Shown: positions 3,787 through 61,020 of the stretch, piece after piece
How the letters are laid out: the number at the start of each line of letters is the position of its first letter
Numbering within the stretch: the stretch's first letter is position 1
Source: an uncultured bacterium
Lineage (GTDB): Bacteria; Patescibacteriota; Minisyncoccia; Phycocordibacterales; UBA9973
DNA: 62,980 nucleotides
NCBI GenBank assembly: GCA_903838985.1
Contig: CAIMAO010000014.1
Coordinates: forward strand, 1-62,980
Direction: 5' to 3'
Made by a program: the position numbers and the translations under genes
Notes under the pieces: generated by a model
What the model was told of the DNA's origin: nothing
The model's database searches: none
What the model saw: only the letters and a program-made list of their open reading frames with translations

Positions 3787-5532
3787 ATGCAAATAAACGA
3801 AGAACAATTGAAAAAAGCAATTCTAGAAGCAAAGCTTGTCACACGTTCTGAACTTGATGATTCAATTAAAAAAGCTGAGAATAAAAAACAAAAGTTTGGG
3901 GATATTTTGTTGTCAGATGGTAAAATTTCTGAAACAGATTTAAAAAGAATGGAAGCATTTGTTTTAGAAATTCCATTTATTAGTTTAGTTGATAAAAAAA
4001 TTAATTTTGATATTCTTTCTCTCATTCCTGAACCGATAGCAAGGAATCACAACATAATAGCTTATAAAAAAAGTGAAGCAGGTTTAGAAATAGCTATGCT
4101 CGACGTAGATGACCTTCCGATGATTGATTTTATTAAGAAACGTTCCGGAGAAAAAATTCTTCCAAGACTTACAGACACTGCTTCTATCAAATTTGCTCTT
4201 GTTCAATATAGAAAAAGTTTGCAAGCGGACTTTGATAATATAATTCAAAAAGAAACATTATCTATTTCTAAAGAAGGAGATGAAACAGAAAAAACAGAAG
4301 AAGAATTGAAAGCCTTAGCTGAGGATTTGCCAGTTATTAAAATTGTGGACTCATTAGTTTTTCACGCAATTCTACAAAATGCTTCTGACATACATATTGA
4401 GCCAGGGGAAAAGGAATTAATCGTCAGATACAGAATAGATGGAATACTTCATGATGCCATGGTGCTCGACAAAAATGCTGCACCAGGAATAACGACTCGT
4501 GTGAAAGTTTTGTCTAACCTAAAATTAGATGAAAAGAGATTACCTCAAGATGGAAGATTTAAAATAGATCAAAATGGTGAAAAAGTTTCTTTCCGTGTTT
4601 CAACATTGCCGACATTTTTTGGTGAGAAAGTAGTGATAAGAATATTGAAAGAAAATGCACATGGTTTTACTTTGGAAGACTTAGGTTTTCATGGAGAGGG
4701 ATTAGAAAGGATTCATGATTCTCTAAAACAAAAAGTGGGTATGGTGCTTGCGACAGGTCCGACTGGTTCTGGAAAAACTACGACACTTTATACAATGCTT
4801 GAACTTTTAAATAGACCGGAAGTTAACATTTCTACCGTTGAAGACCCTATTGAATATCAGATCTCTAGAGTAAATCAAACACAAGTCAAACCAGAGATTG
4901 GTTTTACTTTTGCAAATGGTCTTCGTTCTCTTCTTCGCCAAGATCCAGATATAGTAATGGTGGGAGAAATTCGTGATGTTGAAACAGCTGGATTGGCCAT
5001 AAATGCTTCTCTTACCGGACACCTTGTATTGTCCACTATTCACACCAACTCTGCTTCTGGGGCAATTCCACGCCTTATAGATATGGGTGTATTGCCTTTC
5101 TTAATAATTTCGACGGTCAAAACCATACTTGCCCAGAGACTCGTGCGTAAGCTCGTTTCAAGTAAAGAAAAGTATACTTTGTCAAAAGAAGAAATAAAAA
5201 ATCTAGGTAAACTTGTTGATTTAGATCGCATGCTTTTAATGTTGAAAAGTGAAAAAATAATTGGACCAAAAGATAATTGGGAGACAATTCATTTTTATAA
5301 ACCAGTTGCCAATAATGAATCTGCTGACGGATATTCTGGACGTATAGGGATACATGAAGTTTTGAAAGTCACTTCTTCTATAAAAGAATTGATTCTTCGT
5401 GGAGCTTCTCAGGATGACATAGAAGCACAAGCAAAGAAAGAGGGTATGATGACAATTTTAGAAGATGGAGTTTTCCAAGCAGCTTTAGGAATGACAAGCT
5501 TAGAAGAAGTATTTCGTGTTGTTTCTGAATAA
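3787..5532 (+). CDS. pilB: Type IV pilus / type II secretion assembly ATPase (PilB/GspE family)
   Basis: 581 aa. Walker A GPTGSGKTTTLY, VGEIRD and LSTIHTN boxes typical of GspE/PilB hexameric ATPases. N-terminal T2SSE_N-like region. Confidence 0.9.
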   Translation: MQINEEQLKKAILEAKLVTRSELDDSIKKAENKKQKFGDILLSDGKISETDLKRMEAFVLEIPFISLVDKKINFDILSLIPEPIARNHNIIAYKKSEAGLEIAMLDVDDLPMIDFIKKRSGEKILPRLTDTASIKFALVQYRKSLQADFDNIIQKETLSISKEGDETEKTEEELKALAEDLPVIKIVDSLVFHAILQNASDIHIEPGEKELIVRYRIDGILHDAMVLDKNAAPGITTRVKVLSNLKLDEKRLPQDGRFKIDQNGEKVSFRVSTLPTFFGEKVVIRILKENAHGFTLEDLGFHGEGLERIHDSLKQKVGMVLATGPTGSGKTTTLYTMLELLNRPEVNISTVEDPIEYQISRVNQTQVKPEIGFTFANGLRSLLRQDPDIVMVGEIRDVETAGLAINASLTGHLVLSTIHTNSASGAIPRLIDMGVLPFLIISTVKTILAQRLVRKLVSSKEKYTLSKEEIKNLGKLVDLDRMLLMLKSEKIIGPKDNWETIHFYKPVANNESADGYSGRIGIHEVLKVTSSIKELILRGASQDDIEAQAKKEGMMTILEDGVFQAALGMTSLEEVFRVVSE

Positions 5533-41927: not shown

Positions 41928-41980
41928 TATATTAACAGATTAATTTATAAAATCAAATTTTTTACCAAAACCAAAGAAAC

Positions 41981-42088
41981 AACTCCAGAAACAATATTTT
42001 TGTCGGTACGGATTTTTTGAAGCTTAAAAAATCCTGAAATTGGCTCGCCGTCGCTCGCCAAACCCCTTAAAAATATTTTTCTGGAGTT
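41981..42088 (+). repeat. Family-A nested-hairpin element, copy A1 (between recA and efp)
   Basis: 20-bp outer stem with a bulged C (aactccagaaaCaatattttt / aaaaatatttttctggagtt) around a 67-nt core. The first 40 nt of the core are identical to copy A2. Confidence 0.9.
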
Positions 42089-42093
42089 ATTTT

Positions 42094-43131
42094 TTATTCT
42101 TCTGCAAACTTTTTACGAATTTCTTTTAAGATTTGATCTGCTATTTTGTGGTTTTCTTTTAAGAAAGTTCTTGTGGAATCATAACCCACACCTAATTTTA
42201 CTTTTTCAGCTTTTTCTCCACTTGGCATATAGAAATATGAATTACCAGTTTTTTCTACTATTTTAAATTTCTCTCCTAATGCAATAATTTCACCTTCTTT
42301 GGAAATACCTTCATTATAAATAATATCAAACTCTGTTTGTTTAAATGGCGCAGCAACTTTGTTTTTTACTACCTTCACACGAGTACGACTTCCGACGATA
42401 TCTTCTCCTTTTTTAATTTGTGCAATTTTTCTGATATCAAGTCTTACAGAAGTGTAAAATTTTAATGCTTTACCTCCTGGAGTAGTTTCAGGATTGCCAA
42501 ACATAACTCCGATTTGCATTCTTATTTGGTTTATAAAAATAACTACAGTTTTAGATCTAGCTACAATGGCTGTGAGTTTGCGAAGTGCTTGAGACATAAG
42601 TCTTGCTTGTTTACCTATATGATAAGCACCCATATCTCCCTCTATTTCATCCTTTGGTGTTAGTGCAGCGACAGAGTCTACGACAATGACATCAATTTTT
42701 CCTGTTCGTACTAGACTCTCAACTATCTCGAGTGCTTGTTCTCCTGTATCTGGTTGAGAGATAAGCAAGTCATCTATATTTACTCCAAGTTTTTTTGTAT
42801 AATCTGGGTCCATTGCATGTTCAGCATCTATATATGCACAGATTCCTCCGAGTTTTTGTGCTTCAGCACATATATGCAACGATAGGGTAGTCTTGCCTGA
42901 AGATTCTGGTCCAAATATTTCAATTATTCTTCCACGTGGTATTCCTCCGACACCGAGAGCCATATCAAGACCCAAAGAACCTGTAGGTATAGTATTTATA
43001 TCTACTTTTGGTGAATCACCAAGTTTCATAATTGAGCCTTCTCCAAATTTTGCTTGTATTGCTTTTAATGTATCATCAAGCATTGATACACCTACTGACT
43101 TATCTTCTTTTTTTTCTTTTTTCTTTACCAT
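42094..43131 (-). CDS. recA: Recombinase RecA
   Basis: GPESSGKTT Walker [10 protein letters not shown] Walker B, and loop motifs. Start set at [12 protein letters not shown] (ATG 43131). The longer track ORF runs into repeat element B1. Confidence 0.95.
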
Positions 43132-43141
43132 AAATTTTTTT

Positions 43142-43273
43142 GAATTATAAAACTTGTTGCAGGTGTAATTTTTGAGAGATATTGCGCAGGCTGTCGAGCC
43201 GAGCATAGCAAATTTTCAGTAGAAAATTATGCGTGTCTATCAAAAACTATACCAAAAAAAAGTTTTGTAATTC
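43142..43273 (-). repeat. Family-B nested-hairpin element, copy B1 (upstream of recA)
   Basis: Outer arms gaattataaaactt / aagttttgtaattc. The core 43181-43236 in reverse complement matches B2: acacgcata, then a 7-bp hairpin, then tgctatgctcggctcgNcagcctgcgcaat. Confidence 0.8.
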
Positions 43274-47242: not shown

Positions 47243-47305
47243 AACACCAGTCGCCAGATTGTTTATTTTAAAAGCTACTGACCCTTTTGTTTTTAAAAGC
47301 ATATC

Positions 47306-47409
47306 AGCACCAAATTACTAATTTAAAAACACGCATATTTGCTTGCTAGCAAATTGCTATGCTCGGCTCGTCAGCCTGCGCAATGTTTTAAAATCAGTAA
47401 TTTGGTGCT
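47306..47409 (+). repeat. Family-B nested-hairpin element, copy B2
   Basis: 19-bp outer stem agcaccaaattactaattt / aaatcagtaatttggtgct (1 mismatch). Core blocks 47329-47337 and 47355-47384 are shared with B1. The inner hairpin differs but is still paired. Confidence 0.85.
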
Positions 47410-47499
47410 TTTAGGGGAGGTAGTTAGGATATCTATTTTGCACCTAAAAACCCTTAAATCTCGTATATATTTATAAGGTAATTATTGTCCATTTTTTAG

Positions 47500-47528
47500 T
47501 TGCTTTTTGGCATGAAATATGCGATAAT
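47500..47528 (+). promoter_or_regulatory. Promoter TTGCTT-17 nt-GATAAT ~620 nt upstream of the S-layer-like gene
   Basis: Spacing counted directly from the sequence. The predicted start (~47535) abuts the first stem of the structured element. Confidence 0.45.
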
Positions 47529-47535
47529 TATCCCC

Positions 47536-47614
47536 GTGGAATAACTCATTTCATTTCGATGAAATTCTCAAATTTTGTTATAGCTTAAAGGCTAAAAATT
47601 TGCGAGTTATCCAC
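47536..47614 (+). ncRNA. Candidate structured RNA (three-way junction) at the 5' end of a long untranslated leader
   Basis: P1 gtggaataactc/gagttatccac (11 bp, one bulge). P2 atttcat-ttcg-atgaaat. P3 caaatttt...aaaatttg with an apical tagc/gcta pairing. Confidence 0.35.
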
Positions 47615-47710
47615 ATAATATATTGCTCTATCTTTGAGCTATATATTATAATGTTTATGTGAATGCAAATCGCACATTATTGAATGTGTTTTGCATAAGT
47701 AAATGCATTT

Positions 47711-47785
47711 GTTTTCGTTCACGATTACATCGAAATAATCGTGAACGAAAACAACCAATCAAAGGTCGCAAATTTTTGATTGGTT
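47711..47785 (+). promoter_or_regulatory. Two adjacent perfect hairpins (17 bp and 11 bp) in the untranslated region
   Basis: gttttcgttcacgatta-catcgaaa-taatcgtgaacgaaaac is followed directly by aaccaatcaaa-ggtcgcaaatt-tttgattggtt. No T-run follows. Confidence 0.6.
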
Positions 47786-47937
47786 TAATCCATTTAAGCT
47801 TTTCACAGAGCTTTGATGGATCAAGGTTAGGTCATTGAAAACAGTTGTGTTTAAGATGTTAAAATCTTTTTCACAATAATAACCCCGTTAAAAATTTTGT
47901 AAAAAGAATTTTGATTCGGGATGTTTTCATTCTCAAT

Positions 47938-47989
47938 TTGAAGTCAAAAAAATTAAAACTTTTTTGTTTCAGATTGAAGTCAAAAAAAT
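47938..47989 (+). repeat. Direct repeat of a 16-mer ttgaagtcaaaaaaat (two copies, 36 nt apart)
   Basis: Exact copies at 47938-47953 and 47974-47989, ~160-200 nt upstream of the S-layer-like gene. Confidence 0.8.
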
Positions 47990-48144
47990 CTGTTCATTAT
48001 TAAATTGTTCACCGCATTATTATTTGTTTTAAATTATAAATTATAGGTGATCAAAAATAATGATAGACAAATACGCTTTTAGTTTTGTTCATTCATTAAA
48101 AGGTTTGAACAAGTCGAAACTAATTAATGGCGTAGAAAAAAATT

Positions 48145-51100
48145 ATGAGTAAATTATTAAAATCAAAATTTCTTCTTGGTTTAATGATGGTTTTAGCTTT
48201 TGCTGTTCTTGCAAGTTCAGCTGATGCAGCTATCACAAAGACCTTGAAGTATGGTTCAAAGAACGCACAAGTAAAAGAACTTCAACAGAAGCTTGGCGTT
48301 TCTGCAACAGGTTACTTTGGTACTCTTACCAAGGCAGCAGTTGTAAAATACCAAAAGGCAAATAATCTTAAAGCCGACGGAGTAGTTGGTCCAAAGACTT
48401 ACGTATTAGTAAATGCAATAGCTGACGGTACAGTTCCTCCAGTAGATGGTGGTACAGTTCCTCCAGTAACAACTGGTCCTGTATCAGTATCTCTTGCAAC
48501 TGACAATCCAGCTGCAGGAACAGTACTTTCCGGACAAGCAGGAGCAGATCTTGCACACTTCACATTCACAGGAACAGGAGTAGTTAGCTCTGTAACTTTG
48601 ACTCGTGGTGGTGTTTCAAATCAAAGTACTCTTTCAAATGTTTATCTATATGACGGTGCAACTCGCTTAACAGATGGATACACATTTAACAATACAAGTA
48701 CTCTTACAATAAATAATCTTAACCTTGTAGTTAGTGGAACAAAAACAATAGCTGTTAAAGCTGATGTTGCTGTTGCTGATTACAGTGTTTCAGTTATCCT
48801 TTCATCATATACAGTTGGTTCAACAGTAACTGCTGCTTCTGTAAAAGGTAATGAAATGTTTATTGCTAGTGGTTCAGGCCTTCTAGGTACAGCTGCTCTT
48901 ACAGTAGCCTCACCTTCTCCTGCTGCTGCAACAATAAACGCTGGTTCAATGAATCAAAGTTTGTGGACAAATACATTGAGTATTGGTTTACATACTTCAA
49001 ATCTTTACGGAATGACTGTTAAGATGATTGGTTCAGCTCCTTCAAATACTCTTGCTAATGTTGGCTTGTATCTTGATGGTGTTAAAGTTTCAAGTGCTTC
49101 AGTAAATTCAAATAGTCAATACGTATTTGATTTGTCAGGAGCTCCAGTTTCATTGACAACTGGTTCACATCAACTCGAAGTTCGTGGGGATGTTGTTGCA
49201 GGTGCATACAGAAACTTCTATCTATCTCTTGAAAAATCTTCTGATCTTATGATTAAAGATGGTCAAGTACAAGGTGGTATGATTGCTTTGACTCCAACAT
49301 ACAGTGGAGTAGCAGTAAGTAATATGCTTGGTGGTTTGGTTACTATCAACAATGGTACTCTTACTATCAATCAAGACCCTTCATTTAGCAGTACTACTAC
49401 ATTAGTTGGTGGTGCTACTGGTGTTAAGATGGCAGCATATAAATTTACAGCTTACGGTGAAGATGTAAAGGTTAATAGTCTTTCATTTACTCCTTCAATA
49501 AATCTTACCGCACCAGCTACTCCAGATTCTCTTATTAATGTAGGTTTGTATGTAAACGGTGGTCAAGTTGGTTCAAACCAAACAGCAGTTGATGGAACAG
49601 CATTAAACTTTAGTAGTTTAGGCTCTAACTTGATTGTTTCAGCAGGAAGTTCTGTTATTGTAGAAATAAAAGGTGACGTTATAAATGGAAGTAGTATTAC
49701 CGCAACAGCAGGTACAGTCAAATTTGACTTAGCTTCTGGTTCAAGTAATGCTCAAGGTGTAACTTCAGGTCAATTGACTTCAACAGCTTCAGCCGGTGGT
49801 CAATCACTAACAGTTTCATCAACAAACGTTACTTTTGCTCAAACATCAGGATGGGCAGCTTCTTCAATTGCTCCTAATAAATCAGGTGTAAAAGTTGGTA
49901 CATTTACAGTATCAACTGGATCAGCTGAAGGTATCACATTGAATAATATTCTTGTAGGTATCACAGGAACAATGATTGATCATAATCAAATTACAAACAT
50001 CACTCTTAAAGATGGAAATACTGTATTAGGTACTCCTATTGGAAATCCAACAGCATCAAATAACTTCTCAGTTACTTTGCCTGTTGCAATTTCTTCTTCA
50101 AAGACAATTGATGTTTATGCTGATATAGGATCAAGTGCTGCTACTTACACAGTTATTCCAGCAATGACAGTAACATACCGTGGTGCTACTTCAAATGTAA
50201 CAACTACATCAAGTCCAGTAACTGGTTCTACAATCACAGCTAACGTTGCAAGTATCGTTGCTGGTGGGGTAACATTCGTTCCTTCATCATCAATGGTTGC
50301 TCAATTCTTGGTTGGTGGTCAGTCATCAGTATCAATTGGTACATTTAACGTTAAAGCAAATACATTAGTTGGTGGTGCTGTAATCAAAGACGTAACAGTC
50401 ACTGTTCCAGCTAATACTATTGGTTCTGTAACATTAAATGGTGTAACAGGACAAGTAAATGGTACAACAGCTACACTTTACAACGTAGGTCTTACAGTAC
50501 CAGCAGATGCTTCTGGAATTAACGTTCCTATGACAGTATCACTAGTATGTGTAAGTGCTGCAGGAGGTGGATGTGCAGGAGTTTCTTATTCAGATCTTAC
50601 TGCTCAAATCACAACCTTAACTTACTTTGATGGTTCAGTTACACAATCAATCTCACCTACAGCAATCACTGCTACTCATAAATTAGTTGCTTCAAAACCA
50701 ACAATCAGTATGAGTACATCAAGTGGTTCAGGATTTGTGACTGGAAATCAACAAATTGGTACATTCACAGTAGCAGCTGACGCTGCTGGTGATATTAAGG
50801 TTCAAGCTATACCAGTTGTAATTTCTATCTCAGGTGCTGCTACAATCACTGCAGGAACAGTAGAACTTCGTGATTCAACAGGTAACACAGTTCTTGTTGG
50901 AACAGGTGGTGTAAACGGTTCTGCAGGATTAGATGGTTCTGGAACATTTGCTTTCAATACTTCAGCAAGAACTATTGCAAAGGGAACTTCAGAAACATAC
51001 ACAGTCTGGGCAACATTTGCAGGTGTGACAGGTGGTTCAAACACAATGAATGAATCATTCTCACTAGGTGCTAAGGCTTCATTCCTATGGACTGATGTCA

Positions 51101-51174
51101 TCGGCGCTCATGCAAGTGCTACTGGTGCATTGTTAAATACATACCCAACATCAACTCAAACAAAGTCTAACTAG
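48145..51174 (+). CDS. Candidate S-layer/cell-wall-anchored surface protein (signal peptide, peptidoglycan-binding domain, ~900-aa Thr/Ser/Gly/Val-rich beta region)
   Basis: Signal peptide ending ASSADA. PG_binding_1-like LKYGSKNAQVKELQQKLG...DGVVGPKT. Repetitive beta-rich remainder. Visibly less AT-rich than neighbouring genes. Confidence 0.55.
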   Translation: MSKLLKSKFLLGLMMVLAFAVLASSADAAITKTLKYGSKNAQVKELQQKLGVSATGYFGTLTKAAVVKYQKANNLKADGVVGPKTYVLVNAIADGTVPPVDGGTVPPVTTGPVSVSLATDNPAAGTVLSGQAGADLAHFTFTGTGVVSSVTLTRGGVSNQSTLSNVYLYDGATRLTDGYTFNNTSTLTINNLNLVVSGTKTIAVKADVAVADYSVSVILSSYTVGSTVTAASVKGNEMFIASGSGLLGTAALTVASPSPAAATINAGSMNQSLWTNTLSIGLHTSNLYGMTVKMIGSAPSNTLANVGLYLDGVKVSSASVNSNSQYVFDLSGAPVSLTTGSHQLEVRGDVVAGAYRNFYLSLEKSSDLMIKDGQVQGGMIALTPTYSGVAVSNMLGGLVTINNGTLTINQDPSFSSTTTLVGGATGVKMAAYKFTAYGEDVKVNSLSFTPSINLTAPATPDSLINVGLYVNGGQVGSNQTAVDGTALNFSSLGSNLIVSAGSSVIVEIKGDVINGSSITATAGTVKFDLASGSSNAQGVTSGQLTSTASAGGQSLTVSSTNVTFAQTSGWAASSIAPNKSGVKVGTFTVSTGSAEGITLNNILVGITGTMIDHNQITNITLKDGNTVLGTPIGNPTASNNFSVTLPVAISSSKTIDVYADIGSSAATYTVIPAMTVTYRGATSNVTTTSSPVTGSTITANVASIVAGGVTFVPSSSMVAQFLVGGQSSVSIGTFNVKANTLVGGAVIKDVTVTVPANTIGSVTLNGVTGQVNGTTATLYNVGLTVPADASGINVPMTVSLVCVSAAGGGCAGVSYSDLTAQITTLTYFDGSVTQSISPTAITATHKLVASKPTISMSTSSGSGFVTGNQQIGTFTVAADAAGDIKVQAIPVVISISGAATITAGTVELRDSTGNTVLVGTGGVNGSAGLDGSGTFAFNTSARTIAKGTSETYTVWATFAGVTGGSNTMNESFSLGAKASFLWTDVIGAHASATGALLNTYPTSTQTKSN

Positions 51175-51197
51175 TTTGAATTGTTAAGGATATAAGA

Positions 51198-51285
51198 GTT
51201 TCTCAAAACTTAAAATTGAAAGTCTGATTGACTAAATCAATTCCAAAAACCCCGATCGCAATTTAAAGCGACGGGGTTTTTGCGT
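51198..51285 (+). repeat. 88-nt cassette-boundary repeat, copy R1 (palindrome plus intrinsic terminator)
   Basis: gtttctcaaaacttaaaattgaaagtctgattgactaaatcaattccaaaaaccccgatcgcaatttaaagcgacggggtttttgcgt. Starts 23 nt after the surface-protein stop. Confidence 0.9.
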
Positions 51286-51320
51286 TGGTTGGTTAAAATT
51301 TTTATGTTAAAATTATAATA

Positions 51321-51927
51321 ATGAAAAATAAACGTTACGCTTTTATAGACGTTCAAAATACTGAAAGCACCACTCGTCAACTTCTTGGTTTTTTAATTGA
51401 TTGGAAAAAGCTTTTTTTATTTCTTAAAAATGAATGGAAATGTGAAAAAGTTTTTTTTCTATTCTGGAATAGATGTTGGAGATATAGAAACTGAAAAAGA
51501 ATTTGAGAATCTTTCCAATGGAGGTTGTATTGTTTGTTCTAAAATTGTTTTTTCTTATAAAAACAAAAATAAAAACATTCAAACAAAATGTCCAAGTTGT
51601 GGTAATGAATTTATTGAAGTAGTTGATATGGGATATAACAGAAAATCAAATTGTGATGTTGATTTGACTGTTGATGCGATGGAAAACGCTAGTCCAAACA
51701 CTGAGTTTTATCTTTTTTCAGGTGATGGAGATTTTGAATATTTAATAAAAAAAGTGATAGAAAAAGGTGTATTTGTTCATATAGTATCAAGTGCGAAAAA
51801 AATAAAAAATGGACCCAATTATTCAACTTCTAGATTTTCCACAAAATTACGTAAACTTACTGAAGAAAAAGGTAAGCCCGTTGATTTTCTTAATATAGAT
51901 AATTTGAAGTTTAAAATTAAAAAATAG
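51321..51927 (+). pseudogene. NYN/LabA-like domain protein with Zn-ribbon insert, interrupted by a +1 frameshift in a T8 tract
   Basis: Frame 1 (51321-51458) encodes MKNKRYAFIDVQN...CEKVFF. The track ORF continues as FYSGIDVG...CDVDLTVDA...LFSGDGDFEYL in the +1 frame. The frames join at ttttttt(t) 51451-51458. Confidence 0.6.
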
Positions 51928-51934
51928 GCAAGCA

Positions 51935-51962
51935 AAAAGGCCGCGAAGCGCGACCTTTTTTA
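51935..51962 (+). terminator. G/C-rich hairpin terminator after the NYN gene
   Basis: aaaaggccgcg-aag-cgcgacctttttt (one internal mismatch) followed by a T-run. Confidence 0.7.
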
Positions 51963-52013
51963 ATGACAATTAAAGTATAACAAAACGTATTTTCTTGTCA
52001 AGCATTTTGTAGA

Positions 52014-52101
52014 GTTTCTCAAAACTTAAAATTGAAAACCTGATTGACTCAATCAATTCCAAAAACCCCGATCGCAATTTAAAGCGACGGGGTTTTTGCA
52101 T
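52014..52101 (+). repeat. 88-nt cassette-boundary repeat, copy R2
   Basis: Near-identical to R1, R3 and R4 (a few substitutions by manual alignment). Confidence 0.9.
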
Positions 52102-52129
52102 TTTTATCTCACCCCATAATTGATAGGGC

Positions 52130-52156
52130 AGCCCCCTACACCAGGTGTAGGGGGCT
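52130..52156. repeat. REP-like palindrome P1 (agccccctacacc-a-ggtgtagggggct)
   Basis: Perfect 13-bp arms. Lies 18 nt upstream of the RayT-like ATG. Contains GTAG/CTAC. Confidence 0.9.
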
Positions 52157-52173
52157 ATGTTATAATAATAAAT

Positions 52174-52875
52174 ATGACATACAGAAAAGTTTCTTTATCG
52201 TCTGGAGAATATTTTCATATTTTTAATAGGGGGAACAGTAAACAGAAAATTTTTCTTGATGAAAAAGACAGAGAGCGTTTTGTAAAACTTTTGTATTTAT
52301 CTAACTCGAAGAAGAGCGTTAATTTCCGTGATGATATTGTAAGTCAGAAAATTGACGCTTTTGATTTTGATAGGGGAGAAACTCTTGTTTCGATTGGTGC
52401 TTGGGTCTTGATGCCAAATCATTTTCATATATATTTAACGTCCCCTACACCAGGTGTAGGGGACGAAGAGATGAAGAGAAACGAGGAAAATAAATCTAAT
52501 ATTACATTATTTGTACATAAACTTTGTATGAGTTATGTAAAATATTTTAATAAAAAATATGACAGGACTGGTGCGCTTTTTGAAGGACCTTTTAAATCTG
52601 TTCATATAGAAAATGATGGCCAAGCGAAATATCTTTTCTCGTATATACACTTAAATCCTTTGAAACTTATTGATCCAAATTGGAAAGAAAATATTAATAA
52701 AAATATTGATATCACTTTAAAATATTTAGATAATTACAATTGGAGTAGTTATAATGATTATTATGGAATTTTAAGAAAAGAAAATAAAATTTTACAACGA
52801 AAAGATTTTCCAGATTATTTTTCTGATATTAAAAGTTTTAAATCAGAAATTTTTTCTTGGTTAAAATATGAGTAG
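52174..52875 (+). CDS. IS200-like Y1 (HUH) transposase of the RayT/COG1943 type
   Basis: YFHIFNRGN, WVLMPNHFHIYL (HUH), KYFNKKYDRTGALFEGPFKS, YLFSYIHLNPLK (catalytic Tyr region), and NWSSYNDY. Start set at MTYRKVSL. Confidence 0.7.
   Translation: MTYRKVSLSSGEYFHIFNRGNSKQKIFLDEKDRERFVKLLYLSNSKKSVNFRDDIVSQKIDAFDFDRGETLVSIGAWVLMPNHFHIYLTSPTPGVGDEEMKRNEENKSNITLFVHKLCMSYVKYFNKKYDRTGALFEGPFKSVHIENDGQAKYLFSYIHLNPLKLIDPNWKENINKNIDITLKYLDNYNWSSYNDYYGILRKENKILQRKDFPDYFSDIKSFKSEIFSWLKYE
52441..52463. repeat. REP-like palindrome P2, in-frame inside the transposase gene
   Basis: tcccctacacc-a-ggtgtagggga is translated as SPTPGVG directly after the HUH motif. Confidence 0.9.
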
Positions 52876-52883
52876 TTTAATTT

Positions 52884-52908
52884 TTCCCCTACACCAGGTG
52901 TAGGGGAA
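52884..52908. repeat. REP-like palindrome P3
   Basis: ttcccctacacc-a-ggtgtaggggaa, 9 nt after the transposase stop. Confidence 0.9.
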
Positions 52909-52963
52909 AGTCGTTTTGTTTTGCAATTTGCGGTTTTTATTTTGCTTGTGGTATTATAAAAGT

Positions 52964-53224
52964 ATGAAAAAAGTTGTGAAAAAAACATCTGATAAATTTC
53001 TTACGGAAACTAAGTTTGAAAAGAGTATGCAATCTGTTGCAAAATCTTTTGCAGACCAGGCTGATGTTATGCAAATGATGCTTAAAGAAATCAAGACAAT
53101 TCATCAAGATAATAGATATTTTAAGGAAAATATTGTTAGTTTAAACAGTGATGGTTTGTCTTATGATAAGAAAATTGAAAATCTAACTATTAGAATAGAA
53201 AAACTAGAGCTTAAAGTAAGTTAG
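52964..53224 (+). CDS. Small coiled-coil protein, function unknown
   Basis: 86-aa ORF starting MKKVVKKTSDKF, 6 nt after an extended -10 (TGgTATTAT). The longer track ORF start lies in the promoter module. Confidence 0.35.
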   Translation: MKKVVKKTSDKFLTETKFEKSMQSVAKSFADQADVMQMMLKEIKTIHQDNRYFKENIVSLNSDGLSYDKKIENLTIRIEKLELKVS

Positions 53225-53233
53225 TTAACTAAA

Positions 53234-53321
53234 GTTTCTCAAAACTTAAAATTGAAAGTCTGATTGACTCAATCAATTCCAAAAACCCCGATCGCAATTT
53301 AAAGCGACGGGGTTTTTGCGT
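53234..53321 (+). repeat. 88-nt cassette-boundary repeat, copy R3
   Basis: Starts 9 nt after the preceding stop codon. Palindrome tgattga-c-tcaatca plus terminator ccccgatcgc-aatttaaa-gcgacggggttttt. Confidence 0.9.
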
Positions 53322-53351
53322 TTCCTCCCGCTCCATATCGATATTGATAGT

Positions 53352-53382
53352 GCAGCCCCCTACACCAGGTGTAGGGGGCTGC
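53352..53382. repeat. REP-like palindrome P4 (perfect 15-bp arms)
   Basis: gcagccccctacacc-a-ggtgtagggggctgc. Preceded by attgatagtg, as P1 is by attgataggg. Confidence 0.9.
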
Positions 53383-53433
53383 TTTGTCCTGAAGTTTGCA
53401 ATTTTTATTTTGCTTGTGGTATGCTTAAGGTAT

Positions 53434-53721
53434 ATGAAAAAGGCAACATTTCAAATTGGTTTACCAATAACAATATTTAAAGAAGGGAAAAGCTATGTAG
53501 CATATAGTCCGGCTCTTGATCTTTCTACTTCTGCCTCTACATATTTAAAGGCAAGAAGTCGTTTTTCAGAAGTAACCAAAATATTTTTTGAAGAACTTAC
53601 AGAAATGGGCACCTTAGAATCTGTGCTTGCTAGTTTGGGTTGGCAAAAATTAAAAACAAATTGGCATCCACCAGTTGTTGTTTCAAACTATACACAATCT
53701 ATAAATTTAACAAATGCCTAA
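53434..53721 (+). CDS. hicB: HicB-like antitoxin (UPF0150-type N-domain)
   Basis: IFKEGKSYVAYSPALDLSTSASTYLKA pattern. Overlaps the downstream hicA-like gene by 8 nt. Start set at MKKATFQIG. Confidence 0.6.
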   Translation: MKKATFQIGLPITIFKEGKSYVAYSPALDLSTSASTYLKARSRFSEVTKIFFEELTEMGTLESVLASLGWQKLKTNWHPPVVVSNYTQSINLTNA

Positions 53722-53944
53722 AAAGCAAAATATAACTAATAAACAGTTTCAAAAATTTCTGGTATATTTAGGTTGTACTTTAAAACGTTCTCATGGAGAC
53801 CACTTTGTTTATATTCGTTCAGGTTTAATTCGTCCAATTATTATACCGAAAGATAGTCCCTTGCCACAGTTTATTATTAGAAACAATTTAAGATTGCTTG
53901 GTTTAACATGGGAAGAATTTTTTGATATTTTAAATAAATTGTAA
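53714..53944 (+). CDS. hicA: HicA-like mRNA interferase toxin
   Basis: 76 aa. KFLVYLGCTLKRSHGDHFVYI...IIIPKDSPLPQFIIRNNLRLLGLTWEEF fits the HicA/YcfA pattern. Confidence 0.65.
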   Translation: MPKKQNITNKQFQKFLVYLGCTLKRSHGDHFVYIRSGLIRPIIIPKDSPLPQFIIRNNLRLLGLTWEEFFDILNKL

Positions 53945-53960
53945 TCACAGCTTATTATTT

Positions 53961-54182
53961 ATGAATACAAAATATGATAAAATTGCAGATGCACTTTATG
54001 TTAAATTTAAGCAAGGTAAAATTGCCAAGACTCTTCGTCTTGAGAATCATCTAATAGTTGATTTAGATAATAAGTCAAATATTTTGGGAGTAGAACTTCT
54101 CAACGCTAAATCTCAACTTGCACCAGCATTTATAAAACAATTTTTTGGAAAAGATATCGTTAAACAAATTGCTTTTGCTTAA
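53961..54182 (+). CDS. DUF2283-family small protein
   Basis: YDKIADALYVKF...IVDLDNKSNILGVELLNA matches the DUF2283 pattern as I recall it. Confidence 0.6.
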   Translation: MNTKYDKIADALYVKFKQGKIAKTLRLENHLIVDLDNKSNILGVELLNAKSQLAPAFIKQFFGKDIVKQIAFA

Positions 54183-54187
54183 GTATA

Positions 54188-54276
54188 GTTTCTCAAAACT
54201 CAAAATTGAAAGCCTGATTGACTCAATCAATTCCAAAAACCCCGATCGCAATTTAAAGCGATGGGGTTTTTTGCGT
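54188..54276 (+). repeat. 88-nt cassette-boundary repeat, copy R4
   Basis: Starts 5 nt after the DUF2283 stop. Four differences from R3, including one extra T. Confidence 0.9.
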
Positions 54277-54302
54277 TTTTATCTGTATGATATAATAAAA
54301 TT

Positions 54303-54506
54303 ATGGAAAAAGATTTTGACGAATGGAATAATTTAAAGAAAACAACCAATAACTTGGATATTAAAATAAAAATTCGTGTAGGCGAAATTCGTTGGTAAGG
54401 TAGAATTCTTGATAAAAAAAGGCTTGAAGAGAAATTATTTGAAATATCAGAAGCAGAACTTGAAGAAATAAAGAAATCTTACTGTAAGCTTATAATGTCA
54501 AATTAA
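54303..54506 (+). pseudogene. Remnant of a PemK/MazF-like toxin gene (internal deletion plus in-frame TAA)
   Basis: MEKDFDEWNNLKK...IRVGEIRW-stop (TAA 54396) continues in the same frame as GRILDKKRLEEKLFEISEAELEEIKKSY. The central SH3-like barrel is missing. TATAAT lies 6 nt before the ATG. Confidence 0.4.
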
Positions 54507-54527
54507 TTCTGTTTTTATAGAAATACC

Positions 54528-54551
54528 AAAGGCCGTCTTTCGACGGCCTTT
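54528..54551 (+). terminator. Hairpin terminator closing the cassette region
   Basis: aaaggccgtc-tttc-gacggccttt: a perfect 10-bp stem. Confidence 0.6.
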
Positions 54552-54689
54552 GAATGGGTTACCCCAACTTATATTAAAAATATAGCAAAACACTTATGTT
54601 TGTCAAGAATTTTGTAATATTTCCATATTTGGTGCGTCTATGTTAGTATAATTGGTATTTATTATAAGTTTATTAAGTCTTAAAAAACT

Positions 54690-55184
54690 ATGGAAAATAA
54701 AGATAGTAAGGAAATGATGAAATATGTTAACTATGCGATAGGGGCAATAGTGATTATTTTAATCGTTGTTTTGGTGGTTTTAAAGGTCCGAAGTTCTAAA
54801 GAAGCAGCTTTGAATGAGGTTGCTCCAGTGGTTGTAGACACTACAAAGGCCACAGAAGACACAAGCAAAGGCAGTGTGAACTCTGGCAGTAAAGCAAAGC
54901 CTATGAGCTATGCTGATGCTTTAATAAAGTATGCTGATAAGAGAATTCAGCTTGATAAAGATTGTCAGGCTTTCCCAAACAATGTCACTTATAAAGACAA
55001 TACAGGCATAATGATAGATAATCGTGCACCTGTAGCTCGTACAGTAAAAATAGGCACAGAATATTCTGTCAAAGCTTATGGTTTCAAGATTATTGTTTTA
55101 CCTGATACATATCTAAAATCAAAAACTATTTTAGTTGATTGTGACAAATCTCAAAACGTAGCAACTATCCTAGTACAGGAATAA
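54690..55184 (+). CDS. Membrane-anchored protein, function unknown
   Basis: 164-aa ORF with a single TM helix AIGAIVIILIVVLVVL. Confidence 0.4.
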   Translation: MENKDSKEMMKYVNYAIGAIVIILIVVLVVLKVRSSKEAALNEVAPVVVDTTKATEDTSKGSVNSGSKAKPMSYADALIKYADKRIQLDKDCQAFPNNVTYKDNTGIMIDNRAPVARTVKIGTEYSVKAYGFKIIVLPDTYLKSKTILVDCDKSQNVATILVQE

Positions 55185-55205
55185 AAAAATAATTATTGTT
55201 TTTTC

Positions 55206-55240
55206 AAAAAGTGGAGAACTGAAAAAGTTTTCCACTTTTT
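55206..55240 (+). terminator. Intrinsic terminator
   Basis: aaaaagtgga...tccacttttt (10 bp) followed by tttttgtttt. Confidence 0.65.
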
Positions 55241-55243
55241 GTT

Positions 55244-55273
55244 TTGACAATTTCATTGTTTGGATAATATAAT
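55244..55273 (+). promoter_or_regulatory. Consensus promoter TTGACA-18 nt-TATAAT
   Basis: TTGACA at 55244-55249 and TATAAT at 55268-55273. The ATG at 55283 is 9 nt downstream. Confidence 0.6.
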
Positions 55274-55282
55274 TTATTCAAT

Positions 55283-55948: not shown

Positions 55949-58900
55949 ATGAAGAATAAGATATTGTTTATTTTTATTCTAATTTGTTTGTTTTCTATTT
56001 GCGTTAAGGTTTCAGCAAATGAAATATGTTCTCCAACAGGGTATAGTGTTGTTACGGTCAATGGTATATTTACTGATGAAAAGGGGGCGAAATATAATAA
56101 AAATCAATTATCTTATAAACTTGCGGCAACCTATAATAATGAACCGATAAACATTGATTATCTGTACAACCAAACCCACCTTCTCGGTGTTGGGGATTTG
56201 ATTGATGCTGTAAATCAAGGACTTTTTGACCAAAAATCTGATTATGATTTGGTGGAAATGATAAATGATGCAAGTCAAAAAGTTAAAACCCAAAAACTTT
56301 TACTCGTTTCTCATTCACAGGGTAATTTTTACGCAAATAATTTTTATGACAAAGTAGCAGATCAACAAGGTGGTGTTCCTTCTAAATCTATTGGAGTTTA
56401 TAGTGTTGCTTCTCCAGCAAATCGTGTTGCTGGCGGAGGAAAATATCTAACTTCAGATACAGATAAAGTCATAGCTTCTGTGGTGGGTCGTTTCATCAAA
56501 ATTTTACCACCAAATATTCATATACCTTTGCAAGAAGCCGATGGTAATGGGCATAGTTTTTCAGATGTTTATTTAAAATATCAAAGTGATAGGATTATTT
56601 CTGATATAAAATCTTCTCTTAATAATTTAAAAGAAAATGATGAACAAGAGGCAGATCAGCCTTGTATTTCTGCACCAGAATTGACAATAAATCATAAAAT
56701 ACAAGGTGTTTTATTGAATTCTGCAGATTTTGTAATAAACAATACAAAAAGTGCGACAGTGTATGCCGCAAATACTTTATATAATACGACGCTAGCTGTG
56801 GGTAATGTTGTGAAAGGTTTACTAGCCACAGCTGTAGAAAGTTTACCAAATACTAAAAGTGTGACTACGTTGCCTGTTGTTGTCCCAGAAAATAAAAATA
56901 CAAATGTTGCAAACCAAAATATTCCAAAAGAAACGACAAAAGTTGTTGATAAAAATATAATTAAAGAAACAAAAAATACTGAAACAACCAAGGTAGTAAA
57001 AGTTGCTGATGTTTCTCCAGTTTTAGACAAAAAAGATGTTTTGAGCAACGTCATAAAACCCGTTGTTTCTAATGTTGTTTCTTTTGGAGGCGGTGGAGGT
57101 GGGGGGAGTGTCGTCGTCGTTCAGCCAGAAGAAAAACCAGTAATAAAAGATGAAAAGAAAGATGATCCAGTAGTGCCACCACCAGTAGAACCTGTTCCAG
57201 ATGTCACTTCACCGGTCATTACTATTTTAGGGAATAACCCAGAAGTAGCAATTACAAATTCTGTTTATGTTGATGCTGGAGCTACTGCCCTCGATGCTGT
57301 AGATGGTGTGCGTGAGGTGGAGAGTACTGGCACTGTTGATACATCTAGAAGAGGAAGTTATATCATTATATATAAAGCTTCAGATAAGTCTGGAAATATT
57401 GCGACAGCTACTCGTACGGTGAATGTTGCAACTTATAAATATGTTCCTAAATATAAATTTGGCCTAGATAATGGTGATGGTAATTATTGGCAGAATTGGG
57501 CATTTAATGGATCAAATGTTTATGATTGGGCTGACAGTTATGTAGATAATTATTTACATGAACAATTTAAAATTCAAACTTATGCTGGAGGTTTTTGGTG
57601 TTCGCAATGTTTACAGCGTGGTGTTTTTAAACATAATCCTCAAGAAGGTTTTGAAAGATCAGATCTCTTAACTTCTGGTCTTGAAAATAATCCACAAAAT
57701 AATGAAATTGATATGATTTACAATGTTGTTATTCAATGGGATTCTGCTGGTTATACTTATAAAATTACAAATGGTGATAATGTTTATGCGACAGGACGCA
57801 CAGATGTTGCGAATTTAAATAAAGATATGTGGGTCGGTTGGGATGGTTCCTTTAATGATTTTAAGAATTTTCCTGCAGGAAATTGGACGGGTTCTTCTGG
57901 TTGGTACCCATTTGGTCTCACAGGCGGGGGAAGTATGATTTTGCAACCATTTCCAATTTATAAAGAGCCTACCTCTGCAAGTCCTTCACTTTCTCTTATA
58001 AATAAAGGTGTATATGCAGGAGTAGGTGTGACGCCGACATATGGTAGGACGAATTTAACAGCATTTAATTTTCAAGTAATTTATACAGATAAAAATAATA
58101 TTGCACCACAAAATGTAAAACTTCATGTTGTTAACACAGTTACAGGGTTTTCTTTTCCAGAAGTTTCGATGACAAAGATATCTCAGGGCGGGGATGTTTT
58201 AAGTGATGGAAATTTTGCAAACGGAGAAATATATACTGCAAATAATATTTTGTATGACACAGGAATTTATAAATATTATTTTACCGCAAATGATGGTTCT
58301 GGAAATTTGGTAGAAATGCCTTACAACGAAAGATTAAATTTTGGTGTTGTGCCTTCCACTTACACTTATATTCCTCAATATTCTTTTGGGACAGAAAATG
58401 GAGATGGAAATAATTGGCAAGTTTGGTCTTTTAATGGATCAAATGTCTATGATTGGTCAGACACGTATGTTGATAATTATTTGCATGAACAATTTAAACT
58501 TCAAGATTATCCTGGGGGATTTTGGTGCTCGCAATGTTTACAAAGAGGTATATTTAATCACGATCCACAAAAAGGTTTTGAAACTTATGATCTTCTCACG
58601 TCTAATCTGGAACACAATCCACAGAATAATATGATTGCCGTTACTTATGATGTATCTTTGCAATGGGACGCAACTGGTTATACATATACTATTTCTCATG
58701 ATGCTACTGTTGATGCCACTGGCCATACAGATGTTGCAAACGTGAATGAAAATATGTGGGTTGGCTGGGATGGATCGTTTAATAATTTTAAAACTTTTCC
58801 TTCTGGACGTTGGCAAGGTGCTTCGGGCTGGTATCCGTTTGGTTATACAGGTGGGGATAGTATGATTTTGAAACCTTATCCAGTTTATGTTTATTCTGGC

Positions 58901-60860: not shown

Positions 60861-60871
60861 TTAACAAATAT

Positions 60872-60983
60872 AAAAAACCAAGAACAAGATTTTTGTCGGT
60901 ACGGATTTTTTGAAGCTTAAAAAATCCTGAAATTCTCGCACCGTCGCGCTCGAAACCCCTTAAAAATCTTTTCTTGGTTTTTT
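60872..60983 (+). repeat. Family-A nested-hairpin element, copy A2, acting as the rplL terminator
   Basis: 22-bp outer stem with a bulged C (aaaaaaccaagaaCaagattttt / aaaaatcttttcttggtttttt) followed by a T-run. 67-nt core; the first 40 nt are identical to A1. Confidence 0.9.
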
Positions 60984-61020
60984 GTTGTTTTTTGTAAAAA
61001 AGGTGGTATTATGTACGCAT

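Follow-up and report, generated by a model that had tools for sequence, protein, structure and literature searches.

How do bacteria with tiny, streamlined genomes take up and shed accessory genes? Little is known of this in the candidate phyla radiation (CPR), and the locus described here offers a population-level example. It lies on contig CAIMAO010000014.1 (assembly GCA_903838985.1) of an uncultured freshwater bacterium of the Patescibacteriota with a genome of the Paceibacteria type, of which positions 1 to 62,980 were analyzed (the window). Between S, the gene of a giant surface protein, and a core gene for a protein of 164 amino acids (aa), there are four small accessory units of the toxin/defense type, separated by copies of a repeat that we call R. 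The units are an NYN-domain gene (unit 1), a RayT-like transposase gene with a small open reading frame (ORF) (unit 2), a unit with HicA and DUF2283 (unit 3), and a PemK/MazF remnant (unit 4). The question is what R is. Our favored answer, to which we give slightly better than even chances, is that R is the native terminator module of S, amplified locally in an insertion hot spot, where it insulates the units and passively lets whole units be lost or gained by homologous recombination. The locus looks like a small recombination hot spot rather than a new integron-like machine. The repeats and the two genes that border the array are as follows.

48145 to 51174, plus strand: S, giant surface protein of 1009 aa with PG_binding_1 at its N terminus (ORF, Pfam); a core gene, with R1 as its putative native 3' end
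51194 to 51287, plus strand: R1, the putative ancestral copy, with the hairpin AGTTT-CTCA-AAACT, the box TAAAATTGAAAG, an imperfect palindrome, and a predicted intrinsic terminator at 51245 to 51281
52010 to 52103, plus strand: R2 (repeat finder, alignment)
53230 to 53323, plus strand: R3, which matches the four-copy consensus exactly
54184 to 54278, plus strand: R4, the most diverged copy, with a G-U pair in the terminator stem and one T more
54690 to 55184, plus strand: the 164-aa core gene, right border of the hot spot (homologues, synteny)

The four R copies are direct repeats on the plus strand, 94 nt long in register and 91 to 96% identical; none is predicted by chance. An initial annotation, made from the sequence alone, had described four near-identical repeats delimiting a modular accessory array. 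We agree, except that it gave the length as 88 nt, and for some pairs the sharing is longer still. The homology of R2 and R3 extends to the right over about 150 nt at 89% identity (152 nt by BLAST), and R2 and R4 share about 10 nt beyond R on the right, TTTTTATCT. The 25-nt 5' part and the 37-nt terminator part of R each occur exactly four times in the window at up to three mismatches, where shuffled sequences give an expectation of 0.00. The left edges of the four copies agree within about 3 nt, and homology ends sharply there without reaching into the genes. As read from the sequence, the distances between the stop codon and R1 to R4 are 23, 86, 9, and 5 nt, so three copies do begin 5 to 23 nt after a stop codon, as annotated. 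Downstream, 35, 72, 112, and 26 nt separate the copies from the ATG that follows. The annotated -10 box of each following gene stood, and so did a start codon within about 20 to 80 nt, except after R3.

R is predicted to fold into a small hairpin at its 5' end, a palindrome that is likewise small, and a long G+C-rich stem. The 7-1-7 palindrome ascribed to every repeat is perfect in R2 to R4 and has one mismatch in R1. The intrinsic terminator was confirmed as a strong hairpin followed by a T run. Its features are a stem, CCCCGATCGC/GCGACGGGG, that is common to the four copies, A5 ahead, T5-6 behind, and a position downstream of a gene, so that termination is predicted. The 106-nt stretches containing R have predicted folding energies of -26 to -38 kcal/mol (z-scores, -3.6 to -6.4).

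R appears to be confined to this locus. A search with an R profile (nhmmer, --max) found no further copy in the window, and a profile search for the 5' module found no other copy in the window or in the loci of relatives described below. An exact-pattern scan of IMG/VR found no R, and neither did BLAST against plasmids and phages. ORFs that cross R, used as queries, found no ORF called across R in a 5.8-billion-protein database. Among the Genome Taxonomy Database (GTDB) representatives, the 5' part of R had a single match (L001), a chance one inside a membrane-protein ORF; the palindrome part had two matches in JGI metagenomes, both by chance. No Rfam 15 family matched R (the best sub-threshold E values, 0.66 to 9.5, were judged to be chance), and the only match in the window at gathering score was large-subunit rRNA. 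There are no tRNA genes in the window.

To what does R owe its origin? Homologues of the 164-aa protein carry the names Nomurabacteria, Paceibacterota, or Patescibacteria. Through homologues of the 164-aa gene we reached six related loci of 4 to 20 kb each (L019, L021, L022, L025, L026, and L027). The synteny of S is retained in the orthologues of all six. The order in most relatives is S, then zero or one unrelated gene, the 164-aa gene, and, further on, L10 and L12; L019 and another locus, L020, also retain recA and ftsK upstream. None of the six loci has an R array. Five of the six have a single diverged R-like element directly 3' of the S orthologue. It scores best in L022 (nhmmer E value, 2e-13) and L019 (5e-6), is also found in L025 and L026, and is weak in L027. 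These elements were reached via synteny only and were missed by exact-pattern scans. L022 is a sibling species from the same samples as the window organism, and the 5' 59 nt of its element are 88% identical to R, whereas the S genes are just about 66% identical at the nucleotide level. In L025, the nucleotide alignment is continuous from the S gene into R1. In L021, a hairpin like a repetitive extragenic palindrome (REP) follows S in place of R, and resemblance to R is limited to the stretch just ahead of the terminator.

The hairpin AGTTT-CTCA-AAACT and the box TAAAATTGAAAG are conserved across the R-like elements, and only the closest relatives have GTCTGATTGACTxAAATCA. R1 and relatives have an imperfect palindrome, whereas L025, L026, and L027 have none. 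L025 and L027 lack the middle part of the element, L026 has other sequence in its place, and the terminator stem is different in every species. Because a single R-like element follows the S orthologue in relatives without the array, R1 is by synteny its orthologue and appears to be the ancestral copy, a 3'-end module that S has inherited vertically. R2 to R4 are then, by their sequence, lineage-specific copies made in the window lineage, since the species-specific terminator stem of R1 is common to them. The initial annotation had named a set of outcomes that would speak against a special role for R: confinement to this locus, a static arrangement shared by relatives, and an origin as the 3' untranslated region (UTR) of a duplicated segment with flanking homology running into the genes. 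About half of this is what we found. R appears confined to the locus and derives from a 3' UTR/terminator, but the relatives have no array, and the homology on the left ends at R.

Two other identities for R were considered and rejected. Read as coding sequence, R has three substitutions that are synonymous in one frame (SFSKLKIE...), but a start codon is absent, there are in-frame stops in R1 and L019, and the frame is shifted in L026. CRISPR (clustered regularly interspaced short palindromic repeat) arrays have repeats of 23 to 50 nt with unique spacers of similar length between them. The first 25 nt of R resemble a CRISPR repeat (GTTT...GAAAG), yet they belong to a longer unit of 94 nt, and the R copies are spaced 0.7 to 1.1 kb apart with genes in between.

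The content of the array differs between strains. Strain look-ups used the exact proteins with DUF2283, the 164-aa protein, the RayT-like protein, and the NYN protein as queries. They returned the full array, two unit-lacking variants, a variant with a premature stop (L031), broken contigs, and nothing else. The full array was identical in independent freshwater lake samples and with different assemblers, on contigs of up to 218 kb. In the first unit-lacking variant, L007, a contig found in 3 samples, the NYN gene is followed by an R2/R3 hybrid, the unit 3 leader, and the array from the HicB-like gene on, and the R2-R3 interval is missing; the hybrid has the R2-specific AC at positions 29 and 30 and the R3-specific right end. 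In the second, L008, S is followed by an R1/R3 hybrid, the unit 3 leader, and again the array from the HicB-like gene on, and the R1-R3 interval is missing; the hybrid has the left flank of R1 but the C of R3 in the palindrome. L007 and L008 each differ from the window at at least one position outside the junction repeat. Thus the comparison of strains that the initial annotation had proposed reveals differences exactly at R boundaries, and both junctions are the expected products of one reciprocal exchange between two direct R copies.

Loss seems more parsimonious than gain for both variants. Within the clade, the RayT-like gene is inherited vertically, and its usual site, which follows the 164-aa gene, is without it in every contig examined that spans that junction. 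The exact-protein look-ups found no strain variant with new cargo, and in this limited sampling they placed the exact proteins of the four units at this locus only. The spacer beside the conserved surface-protein gene is a hot spot at which lake strains that live side by side differ by whole units. Insertion here seems to have recurred in the clade, because the same spacer holds unrelated extra genes in two relatives, L019 and L025. The extra gene of L019 (9140 to 9835) encodes a tetratricopeptide repeat protein. In L025 (3950 to 4873), a 165-aa ORF without a family lies downstream of some 450 nt in which short hairpin repeats abound.

In the scenario that we favor, R would have gained three further copies as accessory units built up between S and the core gene that comes next. 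Each copy would end transcription of the unit ahead, and the next unit would start from its own -10 box, 6 to 8 nt before the ATG. R would in this way insulate the units from S, which is presumably strongly transcribed, and from one another. As direct repeats of 94 to 150 nt, the copies would be substrates for RecA-type homologous recombination, leading to deletion of whole units, and units could be re-inserted via an excised circle or by unequal exchange. A recA gene (Pfam) lies about 8 kb upstream, at 42094 to 43206. The flanks of the copies suggest nested duplications or Campbell-type integrations anchored on R, and not independent site-specific captures, because R2 and R4 share TTTTTATCT and R2 and R3 share a leader, A-P. 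The stretch TTTTTATCT is also found upstream of an intact PemK gene in a groundwater organism (L032). Its presence there suggests that the R4/PemK junction was the source of R2.

Several points weigh against this scenario. Two unrelated ORFs stop just 5 and 9 nt before R, with left edges that coincide; random segmental duplication would not be expected to be so precise, and the junction may therefore be a defined one. The direction of change is not readable from the strain variants, and integration of a circle through R gives the same products. The 5' module is conserved far beyond the need of a terminator and probably has a function beyond termination. Finally, our view of the genome spans 63 kb (plus 1 to 2 kb), and the scans of collections were exact pattern matches, which are blind to diverged copies.

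The conservation of the 5' module raises the possibility that R is mainly a functional RNA, either a small RNA derived from the 3' UTR or a cis-acting 3' element of the S mRNA, whose copies raise the dose or extend control to the accessory transcripts. We consider this unlikely. The module is conserved across species whose 164-aa proteins are just 52 to 75% identical. Hairpin 1 changes in L026 by two compensatory pairs (AGTTT/AAACT to CGGTT/AACCG), and a terminator at the end of every copy would define a 3' end. However, a promoter scan and sequence inspection found no convincing promoter ahead of any copy, or within R on either strand. Rfam has no match, the RNAalifold consensus structure supports the terminator only and not the 5' module, and conservation is mostly in primary sequence. 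The middle part, moreover, is the one replaced or absent in three relatives. The 5' module could plausibly act as RNA, which would be compatible with R being an amplified terminator module of S. Conserved after S across related species and without a match in Rfam or the other public collections searched, the 5' element is a candidate 3'-UTR signal.

The edges and the strain variants raise a different possibility, namely that R serves a dedicated cassette system as its recombination site, in the manner of attC or pdif, with an unidentified recombinase or the local RayT-like HUH enzyme moving R-bounded units. We regard it as improbable. The sharp, coincident boundaries of R, the short distances from stop codon to R, the presence or absence of whole units exactly at R, and a cargo typical of integron cassettes and defense islands all fit such a system. 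Both strain junctions are also compatible with one exchange interval, R positions 31 to 40 (CTGATTGACT, the left arm of the palindrome), but random crossovers would equally give two junctions that share a 10-nt interval. Pfam searches of all called genes found no tyrosine or serine recombinase or integrase gene within 10 kb of the array, and ten further ORFs of the window (230 to 430 aa) are housekeeping genes or have no family match, with no recombinase among them. The palindrome is not a conserved part of the element, relatives have one R-like element and no cassettes, and there is no variant with new cargo. A PemK homologue occurs elsewhere without R. In addition, the cognate hairpin of the RayT-like gene is not R but a 21-nt palindrome, P.

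The array does resemble the Vibrio superintegron, with its Vibrio cholerae repeat (VCR)/attC sites, and clusters of attC sites lacking integron integrases (CALINs). All have small units in the same orientation, are rich in toxin-antitoxin genes, and carry a near-identical repeat of about 90 to 125 nt after each unit; in integron arrays, too, unit content varies between strains at repeats. The integron integrase is a tyrosine recombinase encoded next to the array, although it may be absent in CALINs. An attC site has an inverse core, RYYYAAC, and a core, GTTRRRY, that pair into one imperfect hairpin with extrahelical bases. In contrast, no integrase was found near the R array, and R has neither these core sites nor a single imperfect hairpin. 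On inspection of the sequence, its two ends (AGTTTCTC... and ...TTTTTGCGTT) show no complementarity to each other and no fit to the attC core motifs. Unlike integron cassettes, the units here come with promoters, and two of them with terminators as well. R comes from the 3' end of a neighboring core gene and is single-copy in relatives, and only unit-lacking variants were seen. The initial annotation had noted the missing integrase and the poor fit to attC, and in this it was right. Its suggestion that R is nonetheless an integron-like landing site was not borne out, given the lack of attC architecture, of a recombinase, and of new cargo, the finding of R nowhere else, and the PemK homologue without R.

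The pdif modules of Acinetobacter plasmids are bounded by XerC/D sites, often carry toxin-antitoxin pairs, and have no linked dedicated recombinase. They too are small, discrete modules between short conserved sites, but pdif sites alternate in inverted orientation, whereas the R copies are all direct. Comparing R with the pdif consensus by eye, we see no 11-6-11 Xer-type site. We think it very improbable that R is the exchange site of a new, integrase-independent cassette system of CPR bacteria, recruited from what was the terminator of a surface-protein gene with high expression, with a host Xer-type or RayT-like HUH enzyme moving units as circles. If the exchange were site-specific, this would be a new kind of cassette system. 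As the evidence stands, the locus is a mechanistically ordinary but instructive case of repeat-mediated genome flux. The locus also resembles direct-repeat deletion and amplification and the tandem accretion of genomic islands between duplicated att sites or gene ends, in which long direct repeats of a resident gene's 3' end flank accessory DNA and recombination removes whole blocks, leaving one hybrid repeat. The units here differ from such islands in their size of 0.8 to 1.2 kb and in having no integrases, and the repeat is the terminator of a protein gene, not the end of a tRNA or transfer-messenger RNA gene.

Two explanations fare worse. R could be a small non-autonomous mobile element, a "portable terminator" resembling a miniature inverted-repeat transposable element (MITE), inserted between pre-existing neighbor genes. 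R is discrete, intergenic, and of constant length with sharp ends, as this explanation predicts. MITEs, however, are marked by terminal inverted repeats, target-site duplications, and dispersed copies. The aligned flanks of R have neither such repeats nor such duplications. All copies lie in one 3-kb stretch in one orientation, with none elsewhere in 63 kb and none in GTDB representatives, JGI metagenomes, IMG/VR, plasmids, or phages. R1 is, moreover, the orthologue of an element that relatives inherit vertically. We judge this explanation highly improbable. That the repeats or the unit-lacking variants are assembly artefacts deserves almost no credence: many contigs do break inside R (L004 to L006, L014, and L018), a sign that assemblers struggle at the array, but the full array is identical across independent samples and assemblers, the differences between its copies are at fixed positions, the contig of L007 was recovered from 3 samples, the prefix "k141_" in the name of L008 presumably marks an assembly word of 141 nt, longer than the 94-nt repeat, and both variants differ from the window outside the junction repeat.

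The array has a G+C content of 26 to 34%, against 32 to 41% in the flanks. Besides R, it comprises the following features.

51321 to 51927, plus strand: unit 1, NYN-domain gene, frameshifted at a T8 run (51451 to 51458)
51935 to 52005, no strand assigned: the NYN unit's own bidirectional terminator (about 51935 to 51962), then module Q1 (sequence, promoter scan, alignment with Q2 and L032)
52133 to 52153, no strand assigned: REP-like hairpin P, CCCCTACACC-A-GGTGTAGGGG, upstream of the RayT-like gene (repeat search)
52174 to 52875, plus strand: unit 2a, gene of a RayT-like HUH tyrosine transposase, with an internal P hairpin at 52442 to 52462
52886 to 52906, no strand assigned: P hairpin downstream of the RayT-like gene (repeat search)
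52964 to 53224, plus strand: unit 2b, 86-aa ORF with no significant family match
53324 to 53433, plus strand: leader A-P-B', with P at 53357 to 53377 (repeat families D4 and D8)
53434 to 54182, plus strand: unit 3, a 95-aa ORF, HicA (53714 to 53944), and DUF2283 (53961 to 54182) (ORFs, Pfam)
54303 to 54506, plus strand: unit 4, PemK/MazF remnant of 31 N-terminal and 35 C-terminal codons in the same frame, with a TAA at the junction
54526 to 54612, no strand assigned: the PemK unit's own terminator (54526 to 54553), then module Q2 (promoter scan); a flank of the PemK unit rather than of R

A -10-like hexamer stands only 6 to 8 nt before the ATG of the NYN gene, the RayT-like gene, the 86-aa ORF, and the PemK remnant, and this short distance suggests leaderless mRNAs. 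The frameshift annotated in the NYN gene is real in the sequence: with one T removed from the T8 run, the gene encodes a 201-aa protein that matches Pfam NYN over residues 8 to 159 (E value, 1e-13). In unit 3, the annotated HicB-HicA-DUF2283 set was upheld in part. HicA scores 27.2 bits, just above the Pfam gathering cut-off of 27, and the Pfam match to DUF2283 is clear. The HicB label of the 95-aa ORF found no support in Pfam, NCBIfam, PHROGs, or PDB sequence searches. A single-sequence AlphaFold model of this ORF was of low confidence (predicted local distance difference test score, 59) and had no significant Foldseek match, so that the ORF is HicB-like by position only.

The annotation of a PemK/MazF remnant was borne out by P0123, an intact homologue of 133 aa (Pfam PemK_toxin; E value, 5e-7), which matches both pieces; relative to it, about 66 central residues are missing. 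P0123 came from an exhaustive search, and a word-indexed protein search with the remnant gave no candidates. The PemK 3' flank and -10 region are about 80% identical to those of the intact PemK locus in L032, beside which there is no R. Because L032 has the PemK promoter region and 3' flank but no R, R is not part of the PemK cargo; nor is it simply part of the NYN or PemK cargo, as both units have terminators of their own. Contigs from several samples end or start at 54383 to 54393, within the deletion junction of the remnant with its in-frame TAA (54383 to 54398), and two of them, L008 and L016, are from one sample. Because contigs break at this junction, two of them in the same sample, we suggest that strains with different, perhaps intact, PemK versions co-exist.

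Q1 carries a strong promoter-like site on the minus strand (52001 to 51974; TTGACA-16-TATACT with TG ahead), and Q2 has one at 54606 to 54579, also on the minus strand. Over these two related modules as a whole (51964 to 52005 and 54575 to 54612, minus strand; 2990 to 3053 in L032), the pattern is TTGACA, 16 nt, and TATACT or TATATT, with TG ahead. The sites face the 3' ends of the NYN and PemK genes at about 10 to 25 nt from the bidirectional terminators. From this arrangement, the Q modules may encode convergent small antisense RNAs for RNase toxins without a protein antitoxin. Between R and these putative RNAs, pairing was limited to unspecific G+C stems.

The RayT-like transposase of the initial annotation was supported by NCBIfam REP_Tyr_transpos (E value, 3.6e-9, below the family cut-off) and by 45% identity to a Pfam Y1_Tnp protein; its homologue in L021 is 71% identical. 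REPs are palindromes of 20 to 40 nt, usually tagged with GTAG or CGTC, that flank a RayT gene and are dispersed in the genome. The P hairpins fit this description, being 21 nt long, containing GTAG, and flanking the RayT-like gene. Four copies were seen, before, inside, and after that gene and after R3 (8 strand hits, 0 expected). An exact-pattern scan of IMG/VR found no P. In REPtron and REPIN-RAYT systems, REP hairpins accompany a single-copy RayT/TnpAREP gene (PMC8266576, PMC3733652, PMC3337134). The RayT-like gene of the array, with its cognate palindromes, is alike, and relatives carry the same gene with species-specific hairpins; R itself is unlike, as it is 94 nt long, is not palindromic overall, and is unrelated to P in sequence. 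The leader after R3 is a composite, on its left equal to the left half of the R2 leader and on its right to the right half of the stretch that follows the RayT stop codon. For this reason, the RayT-like gene with one P looks, in sequence, like an insertion at P into a leader R-A-P-B', of which the leader after R3 would be the "empty site."

The internal P hairpin (52442 to 52462) is in frame right after the HUH motif (NHFHIYL), at codons SPTPGVG. The L021 homologue (ORF 4236 to 4940) has its own, different hairpin at the same codon position (SPKPGLG; 4506 to 4530), and the L026 homologue is without this 14-aa hairpin insert. An internal cognate hairpin that co-varies in this way suggests possible self-targeting or autoregulation. 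In relatives, the RayT/Y1_Tnp gene lies after the 164-aa gene (L021, 4236 to 4940; L026, 4399 to 5085). In the window, it lies before the 164-aa gene, within the array, with nothing in the spacer that follows the 164-aa gene (55185 to 55282). These positions hint that the RayT gene may have moved with its hairpin. RayT-type genes have been described without evidence of mobility (PMC8266576). The premature stop of strain L031 is in the RayT-like gene.

Upstream of S there are about 900 nt of non-coding DNA (47243 to 48144), which resemble the long leader of a highly expressed envelope gene. This stretch contains two exact copies of TTGAAGTCAAAAAAAT, 36 nt apart (47938 and 47974), that are faintly like TTGAAAGTC of R. 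A second non-coding repeat family has two copies in the window (41972 to 42098 and 60865 to 60991), 81% identical by the repeat finder and 87% by pairwise alignment. They have a near-invariant core of about 75 nt inside a stem of more than 20 bp whose sequence changes are compensatory; fold z-scores are -5.2 to -7.0 on both strands, and no Rfam family matches. The DnaA-box consensus TTATCCACA occurs four times in the window (10934, 27264, 47607, and 61573), where 0.8 is expected. In relatives, TTATCCAC(A) stands directly after REP-like hairpins in L021 (about 3440 and 4945) and L022 (about 3590), and it occurs in the same spacer in L019 (about 9075), placed as if it were part of the repeat unit. 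A 300-nt internal repeat of 76% identity (57431 to 57730 and 58358 to 58657) lies inside a gene for a 1210-aa Bact_surface_Ig-like protein and looks like a domain duplication.

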